Virus record (IMG/VR): IMGVR_UViG_2531839664_000015
Span: 1 to 16,592 of that record
Origin: a virus
Lineage: Duplodnaviria; Heunggongvirae; Uroviricota; Caudoviricetes
DNA length: 16,592 nucleotides
Reading direction: 5' to 3' (one strand)
The position numbers and the translations under genes are program-made. A model generated the notes under the pieces. The model was not told where the DNA came from, ran no database searches, and was given only the letters and a program-made list of their open reading frames with translations. Below, piece by piece: positions 5,423-6,578 of this stretch (positions within the stretch are counted from its first letter, which is position 1; each line of letters starts with the position of its first letter).

Positions 5423-5641
5423 TCAGTTTTCCTTATACGGATTAATTTTATTGTGCAGTGCGCTGAATGATTCCCATGTCACATCGGTATATAGCTCAAT
5501 AACTGGTTCAAATGTCCTTCCAATTATCCAGACCAGTAATAGCGGGGATATCGGTATCATCAACACTATAAACAGAATGAAAAACAGAAACTCTGTTGTT
5601 CTGCTCTTTCGTGGGTAATTTTTTTCTAAATAATGTTTCAT
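5423..5641 (-). CDS. small membrane protein (72 aa, one predicted transmembrane helix)
   Basis: Hydrophobic stretch FLFFILFIVLMIPISPLLLVWIIG; stop lies 1 nt from the DUF551 start. A GC hairpin with GAAA loop sits between an AGGAGG and the ATG. Confidence 0.5.
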   Translation of the reverse strand: MKHYLEKNYPRKSRTTEFLFFILFIVLMIPISPLLLVWIIGRTFEPVIELYTDVTWESFSALHNKINPYKEN

Positions 5642-5768
5642 TTCTTACCGCCCTTTCGGGCGGCCTCCTGATGTTCTGAGGGTGCAGGAATCCCTCCGGT
5701 TAAGGATTTAATAAAAATCGTTTCTGATTTAAATCTTCAGTATTTAGTTGTTAGTTGGTTTATCGCCT

Positions 5769-6080
5769 TTATGCTTCAGCCTTATTTCGCAACCAGACAC
5801 AAACCGGGCCATCTTCCGTATCATGAATGGAACCAATAAACCAGCCATCGCCCTCTGGTCGTTCCGGTTCCCATGCAGAAATATCAGCATCACACGCATC
5901 AAGGTCAGCACATCCTTCATCTCTGAAGCAGAGGACGTATTGAAGATTATTTTCCTCCATCCAGGCGTTAAACTCTTCCGTTGAAATATATTCCCGACCA
6001 TCACAGAATTTTTCATATTCAGGATGTGTCCAGTAGCCATATCCGTCACGAACTACCGGCATTTCTTTAATTTCACTCAC
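5769..6080 (-). CDS. hypothetical acidic phage protein (103 aa)
   Basis: GTG start preceded by AGGAGG at 6-nt spacing; start overlaps the upstream gene's stop in the string GTGAGTGA. No recognisable family. Confidence 0.55.
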   Translation of the reverse strand: MSEIKEMPVVRDGYGYWTHPEYEKFCDGREYISTEEFNAWMEENNLQYVLCFRDEGCADLDACDADISAWEPERPEGDGWFIGSIHDTEDGPVCVWLRNKAEA

Positions 6081-6300
6081 TGTTAACCTCCTGCAACGCT
6101 ACACGATACGCCTTCTTTATCCACGCCTTACTGCCATATAATTTCGTCTTCATAATAAACACACCTGCACGACTCGCCGATATCCCCGGACAGGTTAACA
6201 GCACAGCATCCACCACACGGTTATGCTTCCGAAACTCCATTACAGTACTGCTGATAACCACCTGCCCCACCGGGCCGTAATCCTGATACAGGATTTTCAC
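6073..6300 (-). CDS. hypothetical phage protein (75 aa)
   Basis: GTG start preceded by AGGAGG at 8-nt spacing; GTGA stop/start overlap with the upstream regulator gene. Confidence 0.5.
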   Translation of the reverse strand: MKILYQDYGPVGQVVISSTVMEFRKHNRVVDAVLLTCPGISASRAGVFIMKTKLYGSKAWIKKAYRVALQEVNSE

Positions 6301-6578
6301 GCAGACACCCTCCTGTCGAAATAAACGTAGTTATTCACTATGCGCAGCGGCATGCCTAATTTTCTGGCAATTTCCCTTCTTTGCATGCCTCTCTGATGCA
6401 GTTGCCGCGCCAGCTCAATATCACGCTGAGAATATTTTGCCGACGGGTGAAAATCACCACGTAACATCATGCTGATGCCCAGCTCCCGTGCCTTCGTTCT
6501 CACTGCCGCTTCAGTTCGTCCGATAAGTGCGCCAACGCTTTTTACCTTCATCGTTCCCGCACACTGCCGGAGTATCAT
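6297..6578 (-). CDS. putative small DNA-binding protein (93 aa, helix-turn-helix-like segments)
   Basis: Taken from the internal ATG of the 134-aa track ORF, whose long form would overlap the upstream gene by 91 nt. Two helix-turn-helix-like segments (GALIGRTEAAVRTKARELGIS; MQRREIARKLGMPLRIV). Confidence 0.5.
   Translation of the reverse strand: MILRQCAGTMKVKSVGALIGRTEAAVRTKARELGISMMLRGDFHPSAKYSQRDIELARQLHQRGMQRREIARKLGMPLRIVNNYVYFDRRVSA

Follow-up and report, generated by a model that had tools for sequence, protein, structure and literature searches.

The stretch of DNA considered here, hereafter the window, comprises the 16,592 nucleotides (nt) of a Caudoviricetes record in IMG/VR (IMGVR_UViG_2531839664_000015, positions 1 to 16,592), and the element of interest is a short GC-rich hairpin lying between a Shine-Dalgarno (SD) sequence and the start codon of a small gene of the DUF4014 family. 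The hairpin and every feature of the surrounding gene block lie on the minus strand of a prophage, lambdoid or Rac-like, of Shiga toxin-producing Escherichia coli (STEC), between the replication genes and a Q-like gene. In order of transcription, the block consists of a DUF1627 gene (6611..7345), a gene for a helix-turn-helix (HTH) DNA-binding protein (6297..6614, most likely 105 amino acids, aa), the genes for a basic 75-aa protein (p75, 6073..6300) and an acidic 103-aa prophage protein (p103, 5769..6080) and, after a 127-nt gap, those for DUF4014 (72 aa, 5423..5641) and DUF551 (185 aa, 4864..5421).

The SD sequence preceding DUF4014, AGGAGG (5664..5669), is located 22 nt upstream of the ATG at 5641, as counted from its last base, 5664, to the A of the start codon. 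On its 3' side it directly adjoins a hairpin (hairpin 2, 5648..5663) of sequence CCGCCC-GAAA-GGGCGG, with a GNRA tetraloop, which is followed by UAAGAA (5647-5642) and then by the ATG, leaving 6 nt between SD and AUG when the hairpin is folded. The first U of UAAGAA is an optional closing base, as a G5664.U5647 pair lengthens the hairpin to 7 bp (5647-5664) by taking in the last G of the SD. A preliminary description had correctly recognized a hairpin between AGGAGG and ATG, although its coordinates, 5649-5664, were one base off. The predicted folding energy of hairpin 2 is -14.4 kcal/mol, versus -5.4 +/- 2.4 in shuffled sequences (z = -3.8); it is the sole all-GC perfect 6-bp hairpin of the window, and the 21-nt string formed by SD and hairpin never arises by shuffling. 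In ensemble folding, hairpin 2 is formed essentially always, while the spacer and the AUG are open, with unpaired probabilities of 0.66-0.99 save for the first spacer base, the U of the closing G.U pair. Hairpin 2 was also considered as an intrinsic (Rho-independent) terminator and rejected, as it is followed by no U run, but by UAAGAAAUG on the sense strand and CCUCCUGAUG on the opposite one. A terminator and promoter scan of the 127-nt gap found neither, and no Rfam family matched the leader at the gathering score, the best match (E-value 0.086) being to an unrelated eukaryotic element.

Hairpin 2 forms the end of a conserved, unannotated intergenic leader (5646..5712, minus strand), made up of AAUCCUUAACC, a first hairpin, a spacer, the SD, and hairpin 2, which is found before different genes in other prophages. 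Hairpin 1 (5678..5696), GAGGG-AUUCCUGCA-CCCUC, is predicted by folding and contains both an SD-like GGAGGG and an anti-SD-like CCCUC; it is conserved, with no significant covariation. BLAST searches recovered the approximately 67 nt from 5712 to 5646 at 93-97% conservation before different genes, and the leader is present in 2339 of the 5426 complete E. coli genomes (about 43%), at 3278 places and in up to four copies per genome, almost never under an annotated feature. Upstream of the full leader, at least seven unrelated genes are found. Two sequence variants of hairpin 1 were seen, in few sequences: GGAGTG...CACTC (L244), a double change that again gives a perfect 5-bp helix with the register shifted by 2, and GGATGG (L289), which breaks one pair. 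A further conserved element, located about 15-35 nt upstream from the leader anchor, is an AU-rich palindrome (5724-5740, minus strand; CTGAATAATTAAATT(T/C)AG in relatives); its T/C variation toggles between G.U and G-C pairing, and the RNAalifold consensus structure does not include it.

The contexts in which the AGGAGG-hairpin cassette occurs were collected from IMG/VR by three kinds of scan, using an anchor 5' of both hairpins, the cassette itself, or an unrelated upstream anchor. The cassette precedes at least five unrelated gene families, with a start codon always 6-11 nt past the stem: 6 nt for DUF4014, 7 for a 60-aa acidic protein, 8 for a 43-aa open reading frame (ORF), 9 for a family of about 196 aa, and 11 for a 173-aa protein. 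The tails that link stem and start codon (UAAGAA, UAGUUAA, UAGUGAA, UAAUGAAAA, and others) contain no GGAG and hence no SD of their own; only the 11-nt tail, UGGAGAUAAUA, has its own GGAG. One cassette variant has GTG instead of ATG as its start codon, with no shift in position. A second class of contexts lacks hairpin 1 and has the cassette directly after the stop codon of another gene (...GAUUAAUGUC-AGGAGG-hairpin); hairpin 2 was present in all 158 of the 158 sites of this class found by the independent upstream anchor. Conversely, six DUF4014 homologues of about 74-79% identity (L163, L165, L189, L193, L199, and L207) are without the cassette and carry AAGGAG or GGGAG 4-6 nt before the homologous ATG or GTG. 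A scan of genome contigs with DUF4014 returned two loci only, too few to sample the cassette across genera. Homology between copies ends exactly after GGGCGGTA (GGGCGGUA), and on the 5' side it ends at the leader or at TCAGGAGG.

With slightly better than even confidence, we take a hairpin-bridged, or split, ribosome-binding site to be the best explanation for the DUF4014 start, because in most contexts the sole SD lies 5' of the hairpin and the distance from stem to AUG equals canonical SD-AUG spacing. The free AGGAGG would pair with 16S rRNA while the 16-nt GC hairpin with its GAAA loop folds directly 3' of it; with the hairpin folded, SD and AUG would effectively be about 6 nt apart instead of 22 nt, which would allow the AUG to reach the P site, so that DUF4014, despite the 127-nt gap that separates it from p103, could be translated from a split initiation region. 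Recombination would then have placed this portable unit of SD and hairpin before many unrelated accessory genes. What is expected of a split site is largely found at this locus: the linear spacing exceeds the roughly 15 nt beyond which an SD is too far from its start, a stable local hairpin restores, by prediction, a spacing within the range of 5-11 nt, no alternative SD stands at a canonical distance (the 11-nt tail excepted), and relatives, namely the six DUF4014 homologues, use an ordinary SD and no hairpin at the shared start. The preliminary description had proposed that the hairpin could bring AGGAGG and ATG into proximity, an idea that fits the occurrence of the cassette before at least five unrelated genes, its SD-less tails, the hairpin-less homologues, and precedent in phage T4. 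We infer that hairpin 2 folds in the cell and that efficient initiation requires it.

Two T4 genes provide this precedent. According to PMC3014915 (citing Nivinskas et al., 1999), the SD of gene 38 lies 22 nt from the AUG, a stable hairpin reduces this spacing to 5 nt, and the hairpin enhances initiation rather than blocking it. For gene 25, a hairpin shortens the spacing from 27 to 11 nt; mutations destabilizing the stem of T4 split sites lower initiation, and more distant T4-related phages do not have the split gene 25 arrangement (PMC3014915). The linear spacing is thus the same 22 nt in gene 38 and in DUF4014, and the folded spacing is similar (about 5 nt in T4, 6 nt here). However, gene 38 is one late gene of a lytic phage, while the present case is a portable cassette of temperate lambdoid prophages, found before at least five unrelated genes and known from sequence alone. 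The 'accommodated' site at the T4 gene 26-25 intercistronic junction (Malys and Nivinskas, 2009) likewise has a hairpin between SD and AUG, and the second class of contexts described above also starts directly after an upstream stop codon. In the case of gene 25, the hairpin is retained in close relatives, while distant relatives use ordinary sites; similarly, an ordinary SD is found in some DUF4014 homologues. In contrast, stem sequence and loop differ between the two, and the T4 structure was verified by dimethyl sulfate (DMS) probing and lacZ fusions, whereas the one described here is predicted. Most likely, this is a known mechanism in a new, very widespread, and portable form.

If this is true, a further natural split ribosome-binding site would stand beside those of T4 genes 38 and 25, in temperate phages and on a far larger scale, with one cassette present in thousands of copies before several unrelated genes. 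At such sites, no SD at a normal distance is visible to gene callers or to start prediction based on SD sequences. The cassette would also offer a compact, context-insulated ribosome-binding-site design for synthetic biology, and would pinpoint a gene-exchange hot spot within the accessory region of prophages of the Shiga-toxin and Rac types.

Several observations nonetheless weigh against a split site. No significant covariation was detected when hairpin 2 and the whole leader were tested: the 28 distinct stem variants of hairpin 2 have 93.9% of their cells paired, a fraction that shuffles equal, and RNAalifold gives a covariation term of -0.15. Structure is consequently not proven by covariation, the cassette sequences being too alike for such a test to inform. 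In addition, ensemble folding of the full leader pairs the AGGA of the SD for about 70-80% with an upstream UCCU or with CCCUC, and the net output of the full leader could, on this model, be attenuated rather than enhanced. One of the downstream families has its own SD past the hairpin, meaning that the cassette can persist where bridging is not needed. Finally, conservation could stem partly from recombination at a shared linker and not from selection on translation. The pattern of stem substitutions points the other way, suggestively but weakly: they are mostly C-to-U changes in the 5' arm, which keep a G.U pair on the sense RNA (13 cells), while the mirror change, G-to-A in the 3' arm, is seen in 1 cell. 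One compensatory double change, from G-C to A-U, is present in the stem, and a loop change from GAAA to GGCA stays within the GNRA class.

The pairing of the SD in the full leader is also the starting point of a different explanation, in which hairpin and leader act as a translational gate or attenuator, the other function that the preliminary description had considered: the SD would be too far from the AUG and/or sequestered by the anti-SD-like tracts UCCU and CCCUC, with production of the membrane protein kept low or confined to certain conditions (temperature, binding of a factor, or a ribosome that terminates upstream, for instance). In favour of such a gate, overproduction of small membrane proteins is often toxic, and the ON state (hairpin 1 formed, SD free, -22.7 kcal/mol) and the OFF state (CCUC:GAGG paired, -22.6 kcal/mol) are predicted to be isoenergetic; the SD AGGA is predicted to be just 20-40% unpaired, and an alternative minimum free energy structure is also seen. 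We regard this explanation as rather unlikely, since about 20 distinct contexts have SD and hairpin, apparently working as a unit, but no upstream leader, a spacing of 6-9 nt past the hairpin suits a bridged site and would be unexpected if the hairpin were a pure block, the AUG is outside the stem, which takes in just the last G of the SD, and the anti-SD pairings are short and find no support in covariation. Conserved boundary 'linker' sequences are a feature of mosaic joints in lambdoid phages, as described in work on modular evolution, and the cassette might similarly be kept mainly as a linker for RecET- or Red-type swaps of accessory genes or, alternatively, as an mRNA-stability element, the hairpin shielding the downstream mRNA against RNases. 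The abrupt ends of homology described above, the almost invariant rather than covarying stem, the presence in some phages of two cassettes about 1.06 kb apart that flank a small gene set, and the exonuclease VIII (RecE)-like protein encoded by the prophage are all in line with this proposal, and the cassette shares with the lambdoid linkers its position, that of a short conserved non-coding sequence exactly at the joint of exchangeable genes in a nin-like region. Unlike them, it holds a complete SD and a GC hairpin at a fixed distance from the start, which points to a translational role as well. A linker role alone is an unlikely explanation, as it leaves unaccounted for the sole SD 5' of the hairpin, the start codons 6-9 nt past the stem in unrelated genes, and the sense-strand bias of stem substitutions; the linker and translational roles are, however, compatible and not exclusive.

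Binding of a protein to the hairpin, either as a boxB-like site for an N-type antiterminator or as the operator of a translational repressor, is a further explanation, to which we attach hardly any probability. Being a short GC stem capped by a GNRA loop, and part of an early phage transcript, the hairpin presumably resembles the folded loop of lambda boxB, and UCCUUAAC, upstream at 5706-5699, can be taken to resemble boxA; the GNRA character is, moreover, kept in the GGCA variant. Yet the hairpin has a tetraloop and not the boxB pentaloop, lies about 4 kb from the start of the operon at the cro-like gene instead of being promoter-proximal, can be present in up to four copies in one genome and in two within 1 kb, is always adjacent to a start codon, being fused to SD and start, and no N-like gene was identified nearby. 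A lambda-type nut site was accordingly rejected for this locus, the likeness to boxA being partial and Rfam giving no match. A last proposal goes beyond the split ribosome-binding site by treating the whole leader, which extends over 67-110 nt and includes the AU-rich palindrome, the boxA-like UCCUUAAC, hairpin 1 (in a switch reading, a decoy SD with its anti-SD), the SD, and the GNRA hairpin, as an undescribed class of phage cis-regulatory RNA. It would be an insulated, switchable initiation cassette for plugging in and controlling accessory genes, with SD and hairpin doubling as a homology patch for RecET or Red; we consider this improbable as a whole, and the component by which the leader may attenuate or switch translation is speculative and based on modelled structures. 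A literature search found nothing on DUF4014 or on the hairpin sequence; a preprint on the Pas small RNAs (sRNAs) that mentions DUF1627 was set aside, as it concerns sRNAs elsewhere in such prophages.

Paired cassettes deserve mention in their own right. Two SD-hairpin cassettes are found in the same phage about 1.06 kb apart in L023, L056, L092, and L101 and about 1.7 kb apart in L313, and pairs are also present in ArgO145 and L008. They form direct repeats flanking a few small genes and could mediate gain or loss of the gene set.

Upstream of the leader, the genes of the block form a chain linked by stop/start overlaps. The stop codon of the HTH regulator (TGA, 6299-6297) overlaps the GTG start of p75 (6300-6298) as GTGA, with an AGGAGG (6314-6309) 8 nt upstream, and the stop of p75 (TGA, 6075-6073) together with the GTG of p103 (6080-6078) forms GTGAGTGA (6080-6073), with an AGGAGG (6092-6087) 6 nt upstream. 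These overlaps, GTG starts, and strong SD sequences, already noted in the preliminary description, are real: RefSeq annotates both overlaps likewise in an identical prophage, and the N-termini are backed by homologues, which begin MKI... for p75 (with ATG in remote relatives) and MSEI, MNEI, or MNKI... for p103. Further downstream, the DUF4014 and DUF551 genes meet at TGAtATG (5425-5419), DUF551 starting 1 nt past the DUF4014 stop. As such, AGGAGG occurs at chance level in the window (6 observed versus 5.5 expected), but three of the six copies stand directly before starts in this block, a non-random placement. With overlaps of 4 or 8 nt between the first four genes of the block, a ribosome ending one cistron could start the next. 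The translational coupling put forward in the preliminary description is thus plausible from this architecture, which is standard for coupling, the overlaps and strong SD sequences being the part of that claim that is directly seen. Overlaps of 4 and 8 nt are the commonest arrangement in phage operons, and the gene chain is in this respect ordinary, with nothing new. The 8-nt motif (A/G)TGA(A/G)TGA at the p103 start is retained both behind p75 and behind a CPFC-motif gene, possibly encoding a zinc ribbon (e.g., L028, L143, and L146), which indicates that the overlap travels with the 5' end of p103.

The start of the regulator gene probably needs revision. Both RefSeq and the preliminary description place it at ATG 6578, giving a protein of 93 aa, the alternative being GTG 6614-6612, for 105 aa. 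Homologues in Salmonella, Pantoea, Enterobacter, and Franconibacter have 100-105 aa and keep the motif W-x-RAEI-x-I-x-RQCAG, which in the window is encoded upstream of ATG 6578, while many of these homologues have Leu or Val in place of the Met at 6578; forms of 105 aa that begin with MSGW are already found in several NCBI records. Conserved upstream residues and a variable Met at 6578 argue for GTG 6614 as the most likely start, on the strength of this sequence comparison, and the RefSeq 93-aa 'DNA-binding protein' WP_000603384 appears N-terminally truncated. The gene product is a small DNA-binding protein, with a probable length of 105 aa. GTG 6614-6612 overlaps the stop codon of the DUF1627 gene (TGA, 6613-6611) and creates a third GTGA, so that the regulator gene would have this overlap at both ends.

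Assignments of the encoded proteins are of unequal precision. The DUF1627 gene matches Pfam PF07789 (E 5.8e-79) and is named DUF1627 domain-containing protein in RefSeq, while the regulator gives weak matches to HTH_7, HTH_23, and Sigma70_r4_2 and belongs to phrog_323. DUF4014 (PF13198, E 1e-24; phrog_1832) matches its profile over the full length, residues 1-72 on profile positions 1-72, with 87.2 bits against a cut-off of 23.2; inspected by eye, it is basic at the N-terminus and has one hydrophobic stretch resembling a transmembrane segment. DUF551 matches PF04448 (E 7e-18). For p75 (phrog_1001), a word-index search gave 9 matches and an exhaustive search 42, all of them small proteins, and structure prediction gives a confident beta-beta-alpha-beta-beta-alpha model that resembles only generic ACT or permuted-BMC sandwiches. 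p103 (phrog_1372) belongs to a family found in Enterobacterales prophages, whose members have about 103-108 aa and, at the C-terminus, the invariant motif GWF.GSIHDTEDG.VC.WLR. A structure-based search with its model found no fold match and no toxin or antitoxin fold. The structure-based homology search suggested earlier thus led, for p75, only to a generic ACT-like alpha/beta sandwich and gave no fold relative for p103. Among the six proteins of the block, NCBIfam gave no match and PADLOC no significant one, with a single marginal match for DUF1627 (E 0.0085); sequence searches of the PDB returned no solved-structure relatives, only spurious TPR-like or weak matches, and profile comparisons of p103 with DUF551 and of p75 with p103 revealed no relationship. 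These library, structure, and fold searches thus gave no function for these proteins, in agreement with the preliminary description.

The preliminary description had added that blocks of this kind often host toxin-antitoxin or anti-defence genes, a suggestion that is not supported here, and we consider it very unlikely that the small-gene chain (HTH protein, p75, and p103 and/or DUF4014-DUF551) is such a module. The tight coupling of the genes and the succession of a basic p75 and an acidic p103 after an HTH protein are reminiscent of three-component toxin-antitoxin systems, a hok/sok locus is nearby, and, of 29 remote loci, 9 have a ParE-like toxin gene ahead of the p75 homologue. On the other hand, PADLOC, NCBIfam, toxin-Pfam, and solved-structure searches gave no significant match for these proteins, and the p75 and p103 models are generic or negative, as described above. 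Their neighbours vary as well: the genes found before p103 include at least five unrelated ones, in most cases joined to it by the same (A/G)TGA(A/G)TGA overlap, and p75 occurs in remote phages without p103 or the HTH protein, showing that the two are not an obligate pair, while a ParE-like neighbour in 9 of the 29 loci only does not amount to a conserved partnership. Membership in a type II or three-component toxin-antitoxin system was therefore rejected, given the lack of recognizable domains and the varying partners, and the only recognizable system, hok/sok, lies outside the block. In this subset of remote loci, the ParE-like toxin-domain gene (PF24732, E 1e-19; L260 1277-1504, plus strand, and 8 related loci) overlaps the start of the p75 homologue as ATGA, and an unannotated 84-aa ORF upstream of it could encode its antitoxin. 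The hok/sok type I toxin-antitoxin locus of the window (4418-4742, minus strand) is located just downstream of DUF551 and consists of a Hok/Gef ORF (PF01848, E 1e-22) and a sok RNA (Rfam RF01794, 113.5 bits).

Concerning the wider setting, the 1.5 kb around the block is 100% identical to STEC prophages such as that of strain E2865, and parts of this region recur in Rac-SA53, mEp460, and ArgO145-type phages. In Pfam searches, a cI-like repressor gene (9694-10332, plus strand) faces a P22-Cro-like gene, from which an early rightward operon proceeds through a YdaT-like protein, a DnaT-domain protein, a lambda-P-like protein, DUF1627, the HTH protein, p75, and p103 and then, past the 127-nt gap, through DUF4014, DUF551, hok/sok, a BOF protein, DUF968, RusA, and a Q-like antiterminator. 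The best explanation is that the block forms the central part of this operon in a prophage of lambdoid or Rac-like type. It resembles the nin region of lambda in its operon position and in its strings of small genes with ATGA- or GTGA-type overlaps; it differs in that DUF1627, the HTH protein, phrog_1001, phrog_1372, DUF4014, and DUF551 correspond to no named nin family in Pfam, PHROG, and NCBIfam scans, in which ninA-H themselves were not compared directly. In E2865 (L001 3693-5403), the replication genes are, by annotation, those of an HTH-domain protein and a frameshifted ATP-binding DnaC-like protein, seemingly unlike the DnaT-domain and lambda-P-like pair of the window (7361-8888, minus strand); judged from annotation only, this would indicate a mosaic joint near DUF1627. 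Elsewhere in the window, a gene for the DicF sRNA (RF00039, 75 bits) is located in the leftward early region (11976-12027, plus strand), and two tRNA genes (25-98 and 202-274, minus strand) lie downstream of the Q-like and AraC-like genes.

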